Assembly (NCBI GenBank): GCA_036339975.1 | Contig: JAYYZV010000155.1 | Location: 1,449 to 65,448 of the forward strand | Length of the DNA: 64,000 bases | Source of the DNA: Pseudomonadota bacterium | Lineage (GTDB): Bacteria > Pseudomonadota > Alphaproteobacteria > MPNO01 > UBA830 | Reading direction: 5' to 3' | In this document: one piece after another, positions 7,989 to 15,588 of the stretch | How positions within the stretch are numbered: the first letter of the stretch is position 1 | Layout of the letters: each line of letters opens with the position of its first letter | The notes under the pieces: generated by a model | Database searches by the model: none | The model's input: the letters and a program-made list of their open reading frames with translations, nothing else | Told to the model about the DNA's origin: nothing | Translations under genes and position numbers: made by a program

Positions 7989-9011
7989 CTAGTAACTGCG
8001 GTGGATCGCAAATTCTACAGCCTCTATCAGTGACCGCTTAATGTATCCATCCGGGAACGGTTCGAGAGAAGCCCGAGCTTTCGCACCATACTCATGGGCA
8101 CGTTCCATGGTCGCGGCCAGCGCGCCGGATTTTTCCAGCATTGAGACTGCACGACGGAAGTCTCCTTTTTTCTGTTCAAGGTCTTCCAACGCGCGGCGCC
8201 AGAAGGCTTTTTCATTATTGTCCGCAGTCCTGAAAGCTAAAACGACGGGCAGGGTGATTTTGCCATCGCGGAAATCATCACCCACGGCCTTTCCTAGCGT
8301 TGCCTGTCGAGCTGAATAGTCCAGCACGTCATCTACTAACTGGAAGGCCATGCCGATATTGTGACCGAAATACGAAAGCGCCTTCCAGTCGGCTTCGGGC
8401 CGCTCTGCAATGACGGCGCCGATCTCGCTGGCAGCGGCGAAAAGCTTCGCTGTCTTGGAACTGATCACTTCTAGGTAGTCCGACTCGGCCGTTTCGGTGT
8501 CGTTGGCAGTGACAAGCTGCAGTACCTCCCCCTCCGCGATAATCGACGAGGCCTGCGACAGGATGCGGAGCACGTCGAGATTGCCGTCTTCGACCATCAG
8601 TTCGAAAGCGCGGCTGAACAAAAAGTCACCAACCAACACGCTGGATTTGTTACCCCACAAGGCGTTGGCACTTGCCGCGCCGCGGCGAAGATCACTTTCG
8701 TCGACGACGTCATCATGTAGAAGCGTCGCTGTGTGAATGAACTCCACGCAGGCAGCGAGACCGATGTGCCGGTTAGCCTCGTAGCCGCACATCCGAGCGC
8801 TAGCGATGGTGAGCATCGGGCGTAAACGTTTTCCGCCAGCAGCAATGATATGGCTTGCGACCTGTGGAATTAAAATGACGGGACTTTCCATCCGATCAAT
8901 AATAGTCTGGTTGACCCGCTGGATATCATCCAATGTCAGTGCGGTCAGCGCGTCGATGGACGGCTTAGGACGCTCTTGGCGTTCACGTTCAAAGTCGACA
9001 ATAACGCTCAC
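7989..9011 (-). CDS. ispB: Octaprenyl/all-trans-polyprenyl diphosphate synthase
   Basis: Trans-isoprenyl diphosphate synthase with both Asp-rich motifs (LLHDDVVDESDLRRG and FQLVDDVLD); 340 aa. Conserved alphaproteobacterial neighbourhood. Confidence 0.85.
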   Translation of the reverse strand: MSVIVDFERERQERPKPSIDALTALTLDDIQRVNQTIIDRMESPVILIPQVASHIIAAGGKRLRPMLTIASARMCGYEANRHIGLAACVEFIHTATLLHDDVVDESDLRRGAASANALWGNKSSVLVGDFLFSRAFELMVEDGNLDVLRILSQASSIIAEGEVLQLVTANDTETAESDYLEVISSKTAKLFAAASEIGAVIAERPEADWKALSYFGHNIGMAFQLVDDVLDYSARQATLGKAVGDDFRDGKITLPVVLAFRTADNNEKAFWRRALEDLEQKKGDFRRAVSMLEKSGALAATMERAHEYGAKARASLEPFPDGYIKRSLIEAVEFAIHRSY

Positions 9012-9089
9012 GGAGGCCTCGATTCTTGACGATTGCTATAGATATACGGAACATAGTTCGAGCAAGGTGCCGGTCAAGATGGAAGAAGC

Positions 9090-9308
9090 ATGAAAGAACT
9101 GCTCCGATCCAATGAAATTGTGTTTCTGTCGTGGGTTGAAGCGCTGCTCAAATCCGAAGGCGTAGAAACCTTCATCCTCGACGGCCATATGAGTGTGCTG
9201 GAAGGCAGCGTCAGTGCTATACCCCGAAGGATCATGGTTTCTGAAAAAGACTATCATCGTGCACGCGGGGTACTTCATGAATCGGGCGAAGGAGATCGTT
9301 TTGCCTGA
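9090..9308 (+). CDS. DUF2007 domain protein (putative signal-transducing protein)
   Basis: 72-aa protein in the conserved position divergent from ispB and upstream of the MTase. Sequence family recognised only by resemblance. Confidence 0.5.
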   Translation: MKELLRSNEIVFLSWVEALLKSEGVETFILDGHMSVLEGSVSAIPRRIMVSEKDYHRARGVLHESGEGDRFA

Positions 9309-10065
9309 GCGGCCATTCGCCGCGCTACCCGAAGGAATCAGTGAGGATTCATTTCTCGGCGGGACCGTGACCCTACGTCAGCCCGTCCGCGGTTATCGGG
9401 CCGCGATAGATCCCGTAATGTTGGCGGCATCGGTGAATGCGGGACCGGGGGAGCGGGTGCTGGAAGCTGGAACAGGGCATGGTGCTCCGGCGATATGTCT
9501 TGCAAGACGTGTCCCCGAATGCATTGTTACTGGCCTTGAGATCCAGCCCGATCTGGTGCGCCTGGCGAATGATAACGCTCGGCTGAACGGTCTGGCCAAA
9601 AACGTTCAGGTTATGATAGGTGATTTGGGGAGGCAAATGCCGCGAATTGCGGCCGGGGCATTCGACCACGTGATGGCAAACCCTCCGTTTCTTGATGCGG
9701 CCCATGCCCACAAGTCGCCGGATGGTGGTCGCGCCGCCGCGAACGTGGAAGGCGAAGCCAAACTGCGCGACTGGGTAGAGTTTCTTTTGCGAATGGTGCG
9801 TCCAAAAGGCACAGTCACCCTTATACATCGTGCTGACCGGCTGGACGAAATTCTCACACTTTTGTATGGAAATGCAGGGGAAACGGTCGTGTTTCCCCTC
9901 TGGCCTAAACGAGACGTCGATGCCAAACGGGTGATTATATGTGCGCGCAAGGGAATTAGGGCGCCATTGACTATGTCGCCCGGGCTTATTTTGCACGAAG
10001 ATGATGGCTCCTACACAAAACAGGCTGATGCAATTCTACGCGGCGGTGCCTGCTATCTTCGATAA
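9277..10065 (+). CDS. Class I SAM-dependent methyltransferase (tRNA1(Val) adenine-N6-MTase-like, NPPF motif)
   Basis: VLEAGTGHGAPAICLA glycine-rich SAM motif and NPPF (amino-MTase) motif. ATG at 9277 overlaps the end of the DUF2007 gene; the ORF listed from 9193 is an upstream in-frame extension. Confidence 0.75.
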   Translation: MNRAKEIVLPERPFAALPEGISEDSFLGGTVTLRQPVRGYRAAIDPVMLAASVNAGPGERVLEAGTGHGAPAICLARRVPECIVTGLEIQPDLVRLANDNARLNGLAKNVQVMIGDLGRQMPRIAAGAFDHVMANPPFLDAAHAHKSPDGGRAAANVEGEAKLRDWVEFLLRMVRPKGTVTLIHRADRLDEILTLLYGNAGETVVFPLWPKRDVDAKRVIICARKGIRAPLTMSPGLILHEDDGSYTKQADAILRGGACYLR

Positions 10066-10081
10066 ATGATATAAATGTCCC

Positions 10082-10951
10082 ATGACTTTCGATGAAATCA
10101 AGAACATCCTCAGCAATCTGATTGCAAGACTCCCAGTCGAGCGCTTCCGCAACCCGCCGCCGGTAATTGGCATACTGCGATTGGAAGGTGTAATCGGCCG
10201 GTCTGCAGGATCTGGCCGTCAGAGCCTAAGCCTCGACAGTTACGAGCGTGCCATCGGCAAGCTGTTCGATCGAAAAAACCTCAAAGCCGTTGCGCTGGTA
10301 ATAAATTCCCCGGGTGGCTCGCCGGTGCAAAGTGCCCTGATTGCCAAACGTATCCGTGATCTTGCTGATGATAAGGGTATGCCTGTTGTATCCTTCTGCG
10401 AGGATGTCGCTGCATCGGGCGGCTACTGGCTGGCCTGCGCAGGCGACGAGATTTTTGCAGACGCTAATTCGATTGTCGGTTCGATCGGAGTGATTTCCGC
10501 CGGGTTCGGGTTTGCAGATCTGATAGAACGTTTCGGGATCGAACGTCGGATTTATTCGACTGGCCCTCGTAAGGGCATGCTTGACCCATTCCAGGATGAG
10601 AAACCTGAAGACGTGGATCGGCTACGTGAATTACAAGAAGATGTCTTCGAAAACTTCAAATCCTACGTCTATGAGCGCCGCGGCGACATGCTGAAGGGGA
10701 GTGACGAGGCACTGTTCACCGGAGACATCTGGACCGGTAATCAGGCTCTCGAGATCGGGCTTGTCGACGGACTGGCCGAGATGCGCTCGGAGATGCGAAA
10801 ACGGTACGGTGACAAGGTTAAATTCTATAAGGCCGGCGTGCGCCGAGGCCTGTTCAGTCGTTTGCGGAACCGCAGTTTGTCAATAACTGCCCCAGCAGAA
10901 ATCGTGTCGGCGCTAGACGACTGGGCGTTATGGAAACGCTACGGGCTCTAG
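10082..10951 (+). CDS. S49 family peptidase (SppA-like signal peptide peptidase)
   Basis: INSPGGSPVQS...DVAASGGYWLACAGD...GSIGV matches the SppA/S49 catalytic region. Confidence 0.8.
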   Translation: MTFDEIKNILSNLIARLPVERFRNPPPVIGILRLEGVIGRSAGSGRQSLSLDSYERAIGKLFDRKNLKAVALVINSPGGSPVQSALIAKRIRDLADDKGMPVVSFCEDVAASGGYWLACAGDEIFADANSIVGSIGVISAGFGFADLIERFGIERRIYSTGPRKGMLDPFQDEKPEDVDRLRELQEDVFENFKSYVYERRGDMLKGSDEALFTGDIWTGNQALEIGLVDGLAEMRSEMRKRYGDKVKFYKAGVRRGLFSRLRNRSLSITAPAEIVSALDDWALWKRYGL

Positions 10952-10961
10952 GAACGATGTT

Positions 10962-11168
10962 GTGATTCTTAAATTGGTTATTTTGATGCTGATCATTGGC
11001 ATCGTTTGGTGGGGTTTTAAAAGGGTGGCCCGTCAGAATGTTGGTGGACAGGGCGCTGAGAAAAGGCGCGATCGGATTGAAAACGAAGAGATGTTGGCGT
11101 GTGACATATGTGGGACGTTCGTAACCGCGAGGTCGTCGAATTGTGGGCAGGAGAGGTGTCCCTTTTGA
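10962..11168 (+). CDS. Small membrane-anchored protein with C-terminal Cys motif (CxxC-x11-CxxxxC); function unknown
   Basis: 68 aa. Strongly hydrophobic N-terminus (ILKLVILMLIIGIVWWGF), basic/acidic middle, C-terminal CDICGTFVTARSSNCGQERC. Tightly follows the peptidase gene. Confidence 0.5.
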   Translation: MILKLVILMLIIGIVWWGFKRVARQNVGGQGAEKRRDRIENEEMLACDICGTFVTARSSNCGQERCPF

Positions 11169-11234
11169 GTGCTTAGAGGTCACCTATTTCTACGTCCTAT
11201 GCCCGACTAAACCGCCTTTAATAAGGAAATCCTT

Positions 11235-12338
11235 ATGGACTGGTTTAAATTCTTTCTCAAGCGGACAAAGCGTTACGCCTATTCATTCTACATTTTGAAT
11301 AAAAACAAGTTTCTCGGTAGAACATTCGTTCCGCCCCCGTATCGGCGGCTCTTTATCGAAACTGTCAGTTTCTGCAATCTAGAATGCAAGTTTTGCACCT
11401 ATCCCAAACATCTGCATCCCCGTGGTGTAATGGAAGATGAATTATTCCGGCAAGGAATAGATCAAGCAGCCGCATTGGGTATTGATGAAATCGCCCTGAC
11501 GCCTATCAACGGTGAGGTGTTTATGGATCGAAATATCCTAGAGCGGTGGCAGTATATTGAGGATAGCAGCATAAAATCCCACGTATTTTACACAAACTTT
11601 ATAGGCGCTGATGAAACGATGATTTTAGCGCTGTTATCGATGAAAAAATGTCGTTTTATTGAAATAAGTCTGTACGGCCACGATCTTGAGAGTTTCAGTA
11701 AAATAACTGGAAGAAGCGAAATACAATTTAACCGATTGATCGAAAACCTTAGAATCCTGAAACGGCATCTGGATAGAAAGCGGCCCGGTTTAGAAATTGT
11801 GATTGCCTTTCGAACTTATCGGACCTTTCGCCTGAACGGCGCGGCCTCCGACGGGCTTCTGGGTATAGTTAACCGGTTGGGCGCGGCTGGTGTCCATATC
11901 AGCGTCAGTTCAACGGTCGATAATTGGGGTGGCGATGTCACAAAGGATGATATTTCCGGCATTCAAATGAACCTGACAGAGGGACGTCATCTATACCGAA
12001 AAGGCCCGTGTGGGCTCCCGTTTGACAGTGTGCAAGTGACCGCCAGTGGACAGGTGAATGCGTGCGCTTGCAGGGATCCGCGAGGTACTTTGAGGTTGGG
12101 TGACCTGCGATCAGAACCGCTTGCGGATATCCTGTCTCCTCTAAACAAAAGATGGCTAAAAATCGTAGAAGACCATGAAGCTGGCCACTTCAATGACGTG
12201 TGTCGGTCTTGCGGCTTTTATAACAGCATTTACGACGAACGCCGTGCAAACGCCTTCAGGCAACTCGGTATCATCAGTAAGGAGGAGTTTATGTCGCGAG
12301 CAGTTTGTAAAGAAAATGGTCAAGCGCTTTCCCTTTAA
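11235..12338 (+). CDS. Radical SAM protein with C-terminal Cys-rich SPASM/twitch-like auxiliary cluster domain
   Basis: Canonical CNLECKFC (CxxxCxxC) at residues 47-54 after an unusual 40-aa Lys/Tyr/Phe-rich N-extension. C-terminal Cys cluster (GPCG, NACACRD, VCRSCG). About 43% GC against about 55% around it. Confidence 0.75.
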   Translation: MDWFKFFLKRTKRYAYSFYILNKNKFLGRTFVPPPYRRLFIETVSFCNLECKFCTYPKHLHPRGVMEDELFRQGIDQAAALGIDEIALTPINGEVFMDRNILERWQYIEDSSIKSHVFYTNFIGADETMILALLSMKKCRFIEISLYGHDLESFSKITGRSEIQFNRLIENLRILKRHLDRKRPGLEIVIAFRTYRTFRLNGAASDGLLGIVNRLGAAGVHISVSSTVDNWGGDVTKDDISGIQMNLTEGRHLYRKGPCGLPFDSVQVTASGQVNACACRDPRGTLRLGDLRSEPLADILSPLNKRWLKIVEDHEAGHFNDVCRSCGFYNSIYDERRANAFRQLGIISKEEFMSRAVCKENGQALSL

Positions 12339-12598
12339 TCGGCATTCGTGGGTGCCCTGCCTCCCGATAAACAAAACCGGACTTTGCGTCAGTTTACATT
12401 CTCTCTAGCCTTATGCACTAACGCCCCTTATCACCTCACCATTGGGACTGGGGAATTAGTTTTCATTATGATCACAACCATGAAAGAATTAGGTCAATTT
12501 CGACAGAATATTCCGTTTGTTCAGCGATTCGTTGACCCGCCTCCTGACCCCTCGTATTTTGCGACCCACTATCACCTCATGGGCCCGAGAATTACGCC

Positions 12599-13486
12599 AT
12601 GTCGCAGACCAACACTGCCGACACTTCCTTCCAATCGCTCATACTAAGGCTGCAAGCTTACTGGGCGGGGCAGGGCTGTGTCATTCTGCAGCCGTATGAT
12701 ATGGAAGTCGGCGCCGGGACATTCCATCCGGCGACGACCTTGCGGGCGCTCGGTCCGGAACCGTGGAAGGCGGCATACGTGCAGCCCTCAAGACGGCCGA
12801 CTGACGGTCGCTATGGTCAAAATCCAAACCGGCTGCAGCATTACTACCAGTACCAGACGATCTTGAAGCCGTCGCCTGCCAACAGTCAGGATTTGTATCT
12901 AGACTCTCTTCGTCAACTCGGCATCGATCCCGACTACCACGATATTCGTTTCGTGGAGGATGACTGGGAAAGCCCGACCCTTGGTGCGGCGGGCCTTGGG
13001 TGGGAGGTTTGGTGTGACGGAATGGAGGTCACCCAGTTCACCTATTTTCAGCAAGTTGGAGGCATTGAATGCGACCCCGTCGCAGTCGAAATGACCTACG
13101 GTCTTGAACGCCTCGCCATGTACATTCAGGGCGTGGATAACGTCTACGATCTGGATTTTAATGGCGCGGGCGTGTTCTACGGCGATGTGTTCCTGCGTGC
13201 CGAGAGAGAATTTTCGGCCTATAACTTCGAGCACGCAAACACCGAAAAACTATTTCGCGAGTTTGAATATGCGGAAGACGAATGCCATGCGCTTCTGGAT
13301 GAGAAACTTGCTTTGCCTGCTTACGATCAATGCATCAAGGCCAGCCACGTCTTCAACCTGCTGGATGCCCGGAATGCTATCAGCGTCACTGAACGCGCGT
13401 CCTACATCGGCCGGGTGCGGGCGTTGGCAAAGGGCAGTTGCGAAGCATGGTTGGGCACGACTGCCGCGGCCAATCCGGCGGGATAG
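12599..13486 (+). CDS. glyQ: Glycine--tRNA ligase alpha subunit
   Basis: Highly conserved GlyQ sequence ([29 protein letters not shown]). Confidence 0.95.
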
Positions 13487-13488
13487 CG

Positions 13489-15588
13489 ATGCCTGAACTT
13501 TTGTTTGAGCTATTTTCCGAGGAAATTCCCTCCCGTATGCAGAGCCGTGCCGTGGATGATCTGGCGCGACTAGCCACCTCAAGTCTGCAAGAGGCCGGGC
13601 TGGTACACGGCGACTTACGCACCTTTGTAACTCCTCGGCGATTAACGCTCGTCGTTGACGGGTTGCCCGAAAAACAGCCCGATCTGCGCGAGGAAAAACG
13701 TGGCCCTAATGTCGACGCGCCGGAAAAGGCAATTGAGGGTTTTTTGAAGGCCAACGGCTTGACCCGCGAGGAATGCGAGGAACGGACGCTGGAAAAAGGC
13801 ACGTTTTTGTTCGCGGTGGTTGAACAGGCGGGTGCCGAAACGGCGCACATCTTAACCCAATTATTATCGGATGTGATCGCAAAATTTCGTTGGCAGAAGT
13901 CTATGCGGTGGGGGAGCGGGGGCCTGCGCTGGGTGCGTTCTCTGGAGCGGATATTGTGTCTATTTGACGGCCAAGTGCTGGCCGTCGCCACCCGGAACGA
14001 CGTACCCTGTGGTGACGTTACATCCGGACATCGGTTTCTTGCCCCGGAAACGTTTGCCGTGACGCATTTCGCAGATTACGAGAAGAAGCTGCGCGATACA
14101 TACGTGATTCTCGATCAGGAATATCGTAAAAGTTTCATCCTCAATGGGGTCCAGAATGCGGCGGCTGGAGAAGGACTGACGTTGCGCGAAGATACCGGCT
14201 TGTTGGAAGAGGTCGCGGGGCTAGTTGAATGGCCGGTTGTGTTGCTCGGGCGGATCGACGACGATTTCATGGATGTGCCGGACGAGGTGCTAATCACCTC
14301 GATGCGGGCCCATCAGAAATATTTTTCTTTGAAAAAAGACGATGGTTCCCTCGCGCCGTGTTTTGTAGTGGTGGCAAACATGGAGGCGAAGGACGGCGGA
14401 AAGTCGATAGTTTCCGGTAACGAGCGGGTGTTGCGGGCCCGGCTGGCGGATGCCAAGTTCTTCTGGGATCAGGACCGAAAGGCGACGTTGGAAAGCCGGA
14501 TCCCGGTGCTGGCTAAGAGTGTGTTTCAAGCTAGGCTTGGCACCATGGCACAAAAAGTCCAACGAGTGACGGCGCTTTCCGGTGACATTGCTACTTTTAT
14601 CCCCAACTGCGATGTCGAAAAGGCCCGGCGGGCAGCGCGTCTCGCCAAGGCCGACTTGGTGAGCGAAATGGTCTATGAGTTTCCCGAGCTGCAGGGCACA
14701 ATGGGCCGCTATTACGCGCTCAACGATGGTGAGGATGCGGTCATCGCCGATGCCATCGCTGACCACTATTCCCCGGCGGGGCCGGGTGATGATTGTCCGA
14801 CCTCTCCCGTTTCTGTGGCTGTCGCGTTGGCCGATAAGCTAGACACGCTGGTCGGTTTCTTTGCCATTGACGAAAAGCCGACTGGTTCGCGAGACCCCTA
14901 TGCGCTGAGACGATCTGCGCTCGGTATCATTCGGCTGATCCTGGAGAACGAACTGCGACTGCCATTGCGCGACGCTTTTTTGAAGGCCTATTGCGGTTAT
15001 AACGACACCGTTTCCGGTTTTTCAAACACGTCCGCCGACAGTCGCCAACCAGAAATCGTCGAACGCGAACTGCTCGATTTCTTTGCCGACCGGTTAATGG
15101 TTCATTTGCGTGAGCGCGGTGTGCGCCGAGACTATGTCGAGGCGGTTTTTGCACTGGGTGGGGACGACGATCTGGTTCGGCTTATCGCGCGGGTTGACGC
15201 CCTGTCCGGGTTTCTCGCAACCGATGACGGAGAGAATCTTTTGGCAGCCTACAAACGCGCCTCGAATATCGTTGCAATCGAAGAAAAGAAGGAAGGCGTA
15301 TCCTTTGGTGGGGGTGTTTCAGCCGATAAACTAACGCAGGTGGAAGAACGCGCCCTACTCGACGGGCTTTCTTCATCGTCGGCAAGCGCCAACGCTGCAA
15401 TTAATGAAGAAAAATACGTTGTCGCGATGGAGGCTATGTCGTCTCTGCGTCGGCCAGTCGATTTGTTTTTTGAGAATGTCACGGTAAATGCCGACGACGC
15501 TGACCTTCGTAAAAACCGCCTGCGGCTGCTGTCGGAGTTCCGTTCTACACTCGGCAAGATCGCCGATTTATCGCGCATAGAGGGTTAG
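13489..15588 (+). CDS. glyS: Glycine--tRNA ligase beta subunit
   Basis: MPELLFELFSEEIPSRMQ N-terminus typical of GlyS. ATG sits 2 nt after the glyQ stop; the longer ORF from 13438 is an in-frame upstream extension overlapping glyQ. Confidence 0.9.
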   Translation: MPELLFELFSEEIPSRMQSRAVDDLARLATSSLQEAGLVHGDLRTFVTPRRLTLVVDGLPEKQPDLREEKRGPNVDAPEKAIEGFLKANGLTREECEERTLEKGTFLFAVVEQAGAETAHILTQLLSDVIAKFRWQKSMRWGSGGLRWVRSLERILCLFDGQVLAVATRNDVPCGDVTSGHRFLAPETFAVTHFADYEKKLRDTYVILDQEYRKSFILNGVQNAAAGEGLTLREDTGLLEEVAGLVEWPVVLLGRIDDDFMDVPDEVLITSMRAHQKYFSLKKDDGSLAPCFVVVANMEAKDGGKSIVSGNERVLRARLADAKFFWDQDRKATLESRIPVLAKSVFQARLGTMAQKVQRVTALSGDIATFIPNCDVEKARRAARLAKADLVSEMVYEFPELQGTMGRYYALNDGEDAVIADAIADHYSPAGPGDDCPTSPVSVAVALADKLDTLVGFFAIDEKPTGSRDPYALRRSALGIIRLILENELRLPLRDAFLKAYCGYNDTVSGFSNTSADSRQPEIVERELLDFFADRLMVHLRERGVRRDYVEAVFALGGDDDLVRLIARVDALSGFLATDDGENLLAAYKRASNIVAIEEKKEGVSFGGGVSADKLTQVEERALLDGLSSSSASANAAINEEKYVVAMEAMSSLRRPVDLFFENVTVNADDADLRKNRLRLLSEFRSTLGKIADLSRIEG

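Follow-up and report, generated by a model that had tools for sequence, protein, structure and literature searches.

A radical SAM gene beside a conserved small Cys-motif membrane protein gene in an alphaproteobacterial S49-glyQ locus: a probably coincidental pair and a candidate carbohydrate-modifying enzyme

Genes for radical S-adenosylmethionine (SAM) enzymes of the SPASM type that lie beside small Cys-rich open reading frames (ORFs) are a routine target of genome mining for peptide natural products. Such a pair is found in a 64,000-nucleotide (nt) stretch of contig JAYYZV010000155.1 (GenBank assembly GCA_036339975.1; positions 1,449 to 65,448, forward strand), which comes from a member of the alphaproteobacterial lineage MPNO01/UBA830 and is referred to below as the window. 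Between the genes for an S49-family serine peptidase and the glycyl-tRNA synthetase alpha subunit (glyQ), a gene for a 68-amino-acid (aa) protein with a four-Cys motif is directly followed by a gene for a radical SAM enzyme. A first-pass annotation, made from the sequence alone, took the enzyme for a peptide- or protein-modifying maturase and the small protein for either its substrate or an unrelated small membrane protein. Do these two genes belong together, and, if they do not, what does the enzyme act on? The reading favored here, by a modest preponderance, combines a coincidental pairing with an orphan, carbohydrate-acting radical SAM enzyme.

The S49 peptidase was used as bait to collect 80 species-level loci from GTDB genomes, and each of these was searched with tblastn for ispB, the methyltransferase, the S49 peptidase, the small protein, the radical SAM enzyme, and glyQ. 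The S49 peptidase gene is syntenic in loci L001 to L006 and L011 to L090. In 43 of the 80 loci, S49 and glyQ were both in reach; the small protein was found in 32 of these 43, and the radical SAM gene was found in a single one (L020). It is therefore an accessory gene inserted into a conserved S49-glyQ locus, as the first-pass annotation had surmised. Of all 80 loci, ∼38 carry the small protein, and ∼37 of those do so without the radical SAM gene, commonly in the layout ispB (minus strand)/methyltransferase/S49/small gene/glyQ, with the small gene 70 to 190 nt 5′ of glyQ. The proposed check for small-protein orthologs in genomes lacking the enzyme thus had a clear outcome, which extends to the closest relative, L013, where the S49 peptidase, the small protein, and glyQ are 82%, 56%, and 92% identical to those of the window. 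The radical SAM gene lies directly 3′ of the small gene in the window and in L001 (MarineAlpha11-like, 77% identity), L020 (68%), and L004 (66%); L011, L012, and L013, the other three of the seven with S49 sequences at least 71% identical, lack it. Homologs of the enzyme with 32 to 59% identity are encoded in unrelated loci that contain neither the S49 peptidase nor the small protein, and no small ORF recurs beside radical SAM homologs in 78 other loci. Because so many genomes keep the small protein without the enzyme and the homologs found elsewhere lack the small protein, the juxtaposition of the two genes is very probably coincidental. Follow-up effort on a peptide natural product can be saved, and the locus illustrates how conserved synteny can yield a false enzyme/peptide pair.

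In sequence, the small protein (MILKLVILMLIIGIVWWGFKR...ACDICGTFVTARSSNCGQERCPF) has a hydrophobic helix at its N terminus and, after it, CxxC-x10-CxxxxC (not CxxC-x11-CxxxxC, as initially given). A direct homolog search with the 68-aa query returned one match, the query being too short for a word-indexed search, and the orthologs were gathered through S49 synteny instead. Alignment of 42 distinct sequences of the small protein showed a conserved hydrophobic N terminus (...VWYGFK) and four Cys residues that are invariant except in L068, a weak and probably spurious match; the Cys motif is identical in genomes with and without the radical SAM gene. The best and sole meaningful match of the protein is to the NCBIfam model PP0621_fam (NF041023; E value of 2.4e-9), covering profile positions 2 to 55 of 71. 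The small size and the N-terminal hydrophobic segment, which falls within the aligned region, are shared with this family, but the scores are not: the window protein reaches 37.4 bits and eight of its orthologs reach 28.3 to 40.6 bits, so that the whole set spans 28 to 41 bits against a cut-off of 45. Because all these scores stay below the cut-off, the protein probably represents a sister alphaproteobacterial branch of the PP0621 family. Strict conservation of the Cys knuckle, in a membrane protein that is itself widely conserved, speaks for a zinc ribbon and not for the core of a ribosomally synthesized and posttranslationally modified peptide (RiPP), and the four-Cys C-terminal knuckle is likely a structural zinc ribbon. 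The protein can be pictured as a single-pass membrane protein that belongs to the ancestral ispB/methyltransferase/S49/small gene/glyQS neighborhood of this alphaproteobacterial group. Of the two roles initially considered for it, that of an unrelated small membrane protein, PP0621-like and free of the enzyme in most genomes, matches the data; that of a substrate does not, as relatives retain it next to S49 and glyQ, with the same Cys motif, in the absence of the enzyme. In L016, L019, L051, L048, and L084, the PP0621-like gene is found ∼70 to 230 nt 5′ of glyQ (88 to 234 nt in L016, L019, and L051), although 0.5 to 2.3 kb separates it from the S49 gene; its tighter linkage is with glyQS, not with S49. 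A PP0621-like, putative zinc-ribbon membrane protein so tightly linked to glyQS is a conserved small gene of interest in itself.

The radical SAM enzyme carries the motif C47-N-L-E-C51-K-F-C54 (CxxxCxxC), spotted at first pass, in which all three Cys residues are invariant in 28 family members. Both of its Pfam domains pass the gathering cut-offs, Radical_SAM (PF04055) with 37.8 bits against 29.5 and SPASM (PF13186) with 26.9 bits against 21.5, the latter over residues 259 to 326. SPASM domains typically bind two auxiliary clusters, and twitch domains bind one (PMC9012708). In the same 28 sequences, which reach down to 32% identity, the invariant C-terminal Cys residues are C259, C277, C279, C323, and C326, and the fused, more distant relatives described below lack C279, which leaves four universal residues, C259/C277/C323/C326, with a spacing of 18/46/3. 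This falls short of the seven or eight Cys residues of a full SPASM domain with two auxiliary clusters and agrees with the truncated version of that domain, twitch, which has one set of three or four. Because only four C-terminal Cys residues are universally conserved, the sequences suggest a twitch-like domain with one auxiliary cluster rather than a full SPASM domain; the C-terminal region is thus of the SPASM/twitch type, as first described, but its "multi-Cys" character comes down to five family-invariant residues. LTPxxGD, S-x-YGHD-xx-SF, NWGG, and G-x-VNACACRD are further motifs of the family. The N-terminal extension, also noted at first pass, is conserved family-wide, with nearly invariant G28 and R29, and is modeled as a single long helix (residues 2 to 26) that is amphipathic, basic, and aromatic.

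Assignment of the enzyme to a curated family failed: no NCBIfam model came near its cut-off, and the best one, W_rSAM_matur, scored 34.8 bits against 380, with the models for RiPP maturases, anSME, and MoaA much lower still in proportion to their cut-offs. The scores of RiPP-maturase models were 26.1 against 400 (ScmF), 14.3 against 625 (StsB), 13.3 against 500 (CcpM), and 11.8 against 340 (PapB). The equivalog model for the anaerobic sulfatase-maturating enzyme (anSME), TIGR03942, gave 13.8 bits against 349.45, and the enzyme also has too few Cys residues for an anSME. Weak matches to MoaA and CofG come from the generic radical SAM core, to which the matches in a profile search of PDB sequences were likewise confined. 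No match to PqqD or the RiPP recognition element (RRE) was obtained at an E value of ≤1 in Pfam or NCBIfam; the RRE is absent from some RiPP radical SAM enzymes, so that its lack here is supportive but not decisive. Profile classification, suggested at first pass as a means of telling the families apart, thus places the enzyme among Radical_SAM/SPASM proteins in Pfam and in no curated NCBIfam family, and its assignment to a non-peptide class is by inference. Literature searches retrieved no characterized member of the family, and the matches to "PP0621" were unrelated locus tags. The nearest case is an uncharacterized cluster of Campylobacter jejuni HS:19 with a sulfotransferase, a glycosyltransferase, and an "anSME-like" radical SAM enzyme (PMC8743553).

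The AlphaFold2 model of the enzyme (predicted local distance difference test score [pLDDT] of 91.1; predicted template modeling [TM] score of 0.88) has the core of alternating strands and helices that is expected of a partial TIM barrel. A Foldseek search of the PDB gave 112 matches with E values of ≤1e-3, and the top 50 listed were all radical SAM enzymes, with a probability of 1.0; BtrN ranked first, followed by SkfB, DesII, anSME, CteB, BlsE, and EpeE, at query TM scores of 0.45 to 0.53. BtrN is 2-deoxy-scyllo-inosamine dehydrogenase, a twitch-domain enzyme that oxidizes, by two electrons, a hydroxyl-bearing sugar/cyclitol carbon and whose auxiliary cluster has been proposed to serve as an electron acceptor or relay. 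The 18/46/3 spacing of the window enzyme presumably resembles that of BtrN. In the structural comparison, BtrN (PDB 4M7T) has an E value of 3e-10 and a target TM score of 0.66; both enzymes combine the CxxxCxxC cluster with a single four-Cys C-terminal auxiliary cluster, known in BtrN (PMC9012708) and predicted here, and the substrate of BtrN is a small, carbohydrate-like molecule, not a peptide. The differences are no less clear: identity is 17%, the sequences match only at the cluster-binding loop (27 bits), and the window enzyme is ∼120 residues longer, has the conserved N-terminal helix and the NWGG and VNACACRD motifs, and is encoded outside any aminoglycoside cluster. As judged from these comparisons, it appears to be of the twitch type, like BtrN, yet belongs to no characterized family.

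DesII and BlsE are also among the best structural matches, BlsE having the highest query TM score (0.53), and their nucleotide-linked sugar substrates belong to the class that context and fusions suggest for the present family. They differ, however, in their low sequence identity (16 to 18%) and in belonging to antibiotic pathways rather than surface-glycan loci, and any shared chemistry is conjectural. The SPASM maturases anSME, SkfB, CteB, PqqE, and EpeE/YydG resemble the enzyme in the radical SAM core followed by a C-terminal Fe-S domain, in the above-threshold Pfam SPASM match, and in TM scores of 0.45 to 0.5. The enzyme differs from them in lacking the seven Cys residues needed for two auxiliary clusters, the RRE, and a conserved precursor peptide, peptidase, or transporter; the NCBIfam maturase scores are far under their cut-offs.

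The family comprises 67 clusters at 90% identity in a word-indexed search and 339 clusters at 50% identity in an exhaustive profile search (E ≤ 1e-30). Neighboring genes were clustered over 86 loci that encode homologs of the enzyme, and recurrent glycan-type neighbors were found in 24 of the 50 loci outside the clade of the window. AT-rich marine contigs (21 to 27% GC) share a recurrent cassette of the radical SAM gene with Sulfotransfer_3-like and Methyltransf_23 genes, surrounded by genes for NeuB, CTP_transf_3, glycosyltransferase 1, AsnB, SIS, a TIGR04396 "surface carbohydrate biosynthesis protein," and an ABC exporter. This cassette suggests a glycan-tailoring module that has not been described before; sulfotransferase genes are neighbors in 13 loci in all. 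In the clade with 54 to 59% identity, a flippase-like gene (LPG_synthase_TM) adjoins the radical SAM homolog in L009, L098, and L099, followed in L009 and L099 by genes for a UDP-sulfoquinovose-synthase-like protein (341 bits) and a GT2 glycosyltransferase; a PhyH dioxygenase gene is a further neighbor in these two loci. A Wzx-type flippase is encoded beside the homolog in L007, a member of the same clade, and L120 combines the radical SAM gene with genes for a sulfotransferase, an HfsF-like flippase, and a GT2 protein. Plasmid pBHWA1 of Brachyspira hyodysenteriae, 36 kb in size, encodes distant homologs (∼25% identity) within an rfb/glycosyltransferase cluster. Here (L170, 1158-14720), seven genes annotated as radical SAM or SPASM are interspersed with rfbF, rfbC, and genes for an epimerase and a glycosyltransferase; the product of one of the seven is ∼25% identical to the window enzyme.

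The substrate class is hinted at most directly by the fusion of family members to nucleotide-sugar enzymes. Profile searches recovered several natural fusions, all with the family motifs: a short-chain dehydrogenase/reductase (SDR) epimerase joined to a kinase-like domain and the radical SAM domain (918 aa), an SDR epimerase joined to the radical SAM domain (637 aa), a putative rhamnosyltransferase (PF11316) joined to the radical SAM/SPASM domains (695 aa), and a protein-kinase-like domain joined to the radical SAM domain. Because sugars are indicated by the genomic context as well as by the fusions, a carbohydrate can be put forward as the substrate of the window enzyme, a proposal that comes close to an even chance but stays just short of it.

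The cluster content, the substrate class, and the type of reaction can be inferred along the following lines. As a stand-alone enzyme, it would bind a [4Fe-4S] cluster at C47/C51/C54 and cleave SAM to the 5′-deoxyadenosyl radical. The auxiliary cluster, fully ligated by C259/C277/C323/C326 in a BtrN-like twitch layout, would most likely be an electron acceptor or relay. The substrate might be a nucleotide sugar or else a glycoconjugate, lipid-linked or on the surface, from which a hydrogen atom would be abstracted at an unactivated sugar carbon, with oxidation, epimerization, or a related rearrangement to follow; the genes for the partner pathway would lie elsewhere in the genome. More tentatively still, the family may be an undescribed one with a single auxiliary cluster that modifies sugars of surface glycans or glycolipids by a new radical reaction, e.g., with sulfotransferase and methyltransferase partners encoded in clusters of the nonulosonic-acid or sulfoquinovose type that abundant AT-rich marine bacteria carry, and the orphan in the window may do the same on an envelope glycoconjugate. 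A moderately sized, uncharacterized radical SAM family with a predicted single auxiliary cluster that recurs in marine surface-glycan and glycolipid clusters is a more useful outcome than the RiPP lead. Its chemistry, if determined, would extend the short list of sugar-tailoring radical SAM enzymes outside antibiotic pathways and might help explain the glycan diversity of marine bacteria.

Several observations weigh against parts of this picture. Glycan-type neighbors were found in none of the 8 loci of the clade of the window (66 to 77% identity), and none of the recurring partner genes of the family is present within the 64-kb window. Contexts in the clade with 54 to 59% identity include uninformative ones, with genes for an aldehyde dehydrogenase, PrpF, and a xanthine dehydrogenase (XDH)-like molybdoenzyme. 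The link to glycans is at its strongest in the clade with 32 to 40% identity, which could be a paralog with another function. Enzymes that act on sugars (BtrN, DesII, BlsE) and those that act on peptides (SkfB, anSME, CteB, EpeE) are not told apart by the Foldseek comparison. With regard to the pairing, the radical SAM gene directly follows the small gene in all four carrier lineages of the clade of the window; a clade-specific functional link between the two products is nonetheless unlikely.

Could the enzyme act on a protein after all? A RiPP-type or anchored-peptide maturase would use the 68-aa protein as its substrate and install, e.g., cross-links (thioethers or others) within the CxxC...CxxxxC core, which would fit the adjacency of the two genes on the same strand, 66 nt apart, their identical order in L001, L004, and L020, and the presence of SkfB, CteB, and EpeE among the Foldseek matches; SPASM/twitch radical SAM enzymes are often RiPP maturases. 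However, this explanation is largely refuted by synteny, given the ∼37 species-level genomes that retain the small protein and its invariant Cys motif without the enzyme and the homologs outside the clade that lack the small protein or any recurring small ORF in its place. Furthermore, there is no RRE/PqqD domain (the N-terminal extension is a single helix), RiPP-maturase models in NCBIfam reach ∼26 bits at most against cut-offs of 250 to 725, no transporter or leader peptidase is conserved, and the small protein belongs to a conserved PP0621-like family rather than being a hypervariable core peptide. A peptide maturase is thus very improbable, and the original maturase reading is not supported. 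The enzyme could instead mature a separately encoded protein in the manner of anSME or of maturases of tungsten- or molybdenum-dependent enzymes, e.g., by forming formylglycine on a sulfatase or by activating an oxidoreductase. The best, if weak, NCBIfam match (W_rSAM_matur), the place of anSME among the top Foldseek matches, the XDH-like molybdoenzyme gene adjoining homolog P0028, and the sulfur/sulfate theme of the sulfotransferase neighbors would agree with this; the shortfall of the scores (34.8 versus 380 for W_rSAM_matur and 13.8 versus 349 for anSME), the 4 to 5 conserved C-terminal Cys residues where anSME requires two auxiliary clusters, the fusions to sugar enzymes, and the lack of any sulfatase or oxidoreductase as a recurring neighbor do not, which makes this possibility improbable.

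A small molecule other than a carbohydrate, such as a membrane lipid or its head group, a cofactor, or another metabolite, is a less remote candidate but still an unlikely one. The conserved N-terminal helix, being amphipathic, basic, and aromatic, might serve as a membrane tether; the flippase-like and PhyH genes of L009 and L099, the heterogeneous contexts in the closest clades, and the MoaA and CofG matches, weak and due to the generic core, could be taken in the same sense. Yet the UDP-sulfoquinovose-synthase-like and GT2 genes make L009 and L099 look like clusters for a glycolipid head group, i.e., a sugar, the SDR epimerase and rhamnosyltransferase fusions point to sugar nucleotides, and no lipid or cofactor pathway genes recur. 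Finally, the gene might be a decaying, now functionless relic of an old insertion, as could be imagined for an orphan without partner genes nearby and with GC and GC3 (GC at third codon positions) values below those of its neighbors. One homolog is apparently split into two ORFs of 143 and 138 aa (L095, 4051-5205), which may reflect a pseudogene or an assembly frameshift. This explanation is hardly credible for an intact 367-aa ORF that retains all family-invariant residues, has a Shine-Dalgarno-like AAGGAAA site 6 nt 5′ of its ATG, and has 65 to 77% identical orthologs that three further lineages keep at this position, diverging roughly in step with S49.

How, then, did a carbohydrate-modifying candidate come to lie next to the small gene? 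A variable slot extends from the small gene to the glyQ promoter, with the radical SAM gene as its accessory cargo, and this slot gains and loses genes repeatedly (Table 1). The other cargo of the relatives, including the GFO_IDH_MocA gene and the gene for the 104- to 157-aa protein, is on the minus strand. Low GC had been read at first as a sign of horizontal acquisition, and a lower GC content and a patchy presence were indeed found: the gene has 46.4% GC (not 43%, as initially estimated), with 41.3% in its first half and 51.7% in its second, compared with 54.5 to 56.4% in the neighboring genes and 53.4% in the window. Evidence of recent transfer was not found. Orthologs in hosts with 49 to 62% GC are all 5 to 9 points below their own flanks, and the identity of the enzyme across lineages (63 to 77%) roughly tracks that of the S49 peptidase (75 to 76%). 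Because the GC offset is family-wide and the divergence roughly follows that of S49, the sequences suggest an old gain in the clade followed by differential loss, with the GC offset a property of the family. A recent transfer from AT-rich donors is rejected, since the AT-rich clade is only 32 to 37% identical and the offset is family-wide. Searches with the enzyme returned only distant homologs from phages (31% identity over 39% of the query) and from plasmids (22 to 26% identity). Flanking repeats of the kind that delimit mobile elements, direct or inverted, did not turn up in a repeat search, and no mobility genes were found. The spacer of the window was searched for pseudogene remnants of GFO_IDH_MocA, DLH, and the 104-aa gene, and none was detected; the single match was an over-extended ORF overlapping the glyQ leader and no relic of a slot gene. 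A 15-nt direct repeat with 13 of 15 identical positions has one copy in the nonconserved spacer (12424-12438) and the other in the conserved glyQ leader (12565-12579); the insertion may have left it as a scar, or the match may be due to chance.

Table 1. Genes and other features of the window, gene content of the slot in relatives, and cassette and fusion members of the radical SAM family
Feature	Location	Strand	Remarks
S49-family serine peptidase (SppA/SohB-like, short form)	10082..10951	+	Conserved backbone gene; Pfam Peptidase_S49, 97.3 bits
68-aa PP0621-like protein, GTG start	10962..11168	+	Backbone gene; transmembrane helix, basic linker, C-terminal CxxC-x10-CxxxxC
Radical SAM enzyme, 367 aa, with predicted twitch-like (reduced SPASM) domain	11235..12338	+	Pfam Radical_SAM and SPASM
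Nonconserved spacer 3′ of the radical SAM gene, part of the variable slot	12339..12520	.	No alignment with the spacers of L001, L020, and other relatives
glyQ promoter-like element TTGACC-N17-TATTTT (12532-12560) and leader	12532..12598	+	Conserved backbone; promoter scan and alignment
glyQ, glycyl-tRNA synthetase alpha subunit	12599..13486	+	Downstream boundary of the slot; followed by glyS
Slot in L004	7110-9123		Radical SAM gene, DLH, GFO_IDH_MocA, 104-aa gene
Slot in L011	7454-9726		GFO_IDH_MocA, small 104- to 157-aa gene, 305-aa protein with two 4Fe-4S ferredoxin motifs; no radical SAM gene
Slot in L012	7662-9102		GFO_IDH_MocA, 104- to 157-aa gene; no radical SAM gene
Slot in L013	7084-8531		GFO_IDH_MocA, 104- to 157-aa gene; no radical SAM gene
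Three-gene cassette loci L144, L150-L155, L164, L166, L140	e.g., L151 5086-8000		Radical SAM, Sulfotransfer_3-like, and Methyltransf_23 genes
Fusion proteins P0129, P0130, P0145, P0126, P0119			No genomic locus

The four genes and the gaps between them lie where the first-pass annotation had placed them. The 68-aa ORF starts 10 nt after the stop codon of the peptidase gene and is followed, after 66 nt, by the radical SAM gene, which is separated from glyQ by 260 nt. This last stretch, described at first as noncoding, has the length given, but the ∼85 nt nearest glyQ represent a conserved promoter-like element and leader, and it is the remainder that is not conserved. The sequence TTGAC...TATTTTGC is kept in all seven aligned relatives, whether or not the radical SAM gene is present and whatever lies upstream. 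A search of Rfam over positions 9000 to 14000 gave no match, so that the 260-nt spacer corresponds to no known riboswitch or leader, and terminator and promoter scans, with the exception of the conserved glyQ promoter, did no better than on shuffled sequence. The glyQ matches in relatives are 71 to 93% identical, with the Pfam tRNA-synt_2e domain recognized in the orthologs, and the S49 peptidase scores 138 bits with the NCBIfam model SppA_dom, under its cut-off of 155.

Two minor observations concern a homolog of the enzyme and the upstream flank of the locus. In Paraburkholderia jirisanensis (L008, 8328-11493), a 37% identical homolog is encoded beside a second radical SAM/SPASM protein of 500 aa, followed by three DUF1842/DUF1843 proteins of 62 to 208 aa; such an arrangement is more suggestive of peptide or protein modification, by the other radical SAM enzyme and not the one of the present family. 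In the window, a 72-aa DUF2007-like ORF (9090-9308), called as a gene in L004, precedes the methyltransferase gene, and the listed 290-aa methyltransferase ORF (9193-10065) is probably over-extended at its 5′ end, its orthologs being 254 to 257 aa long.

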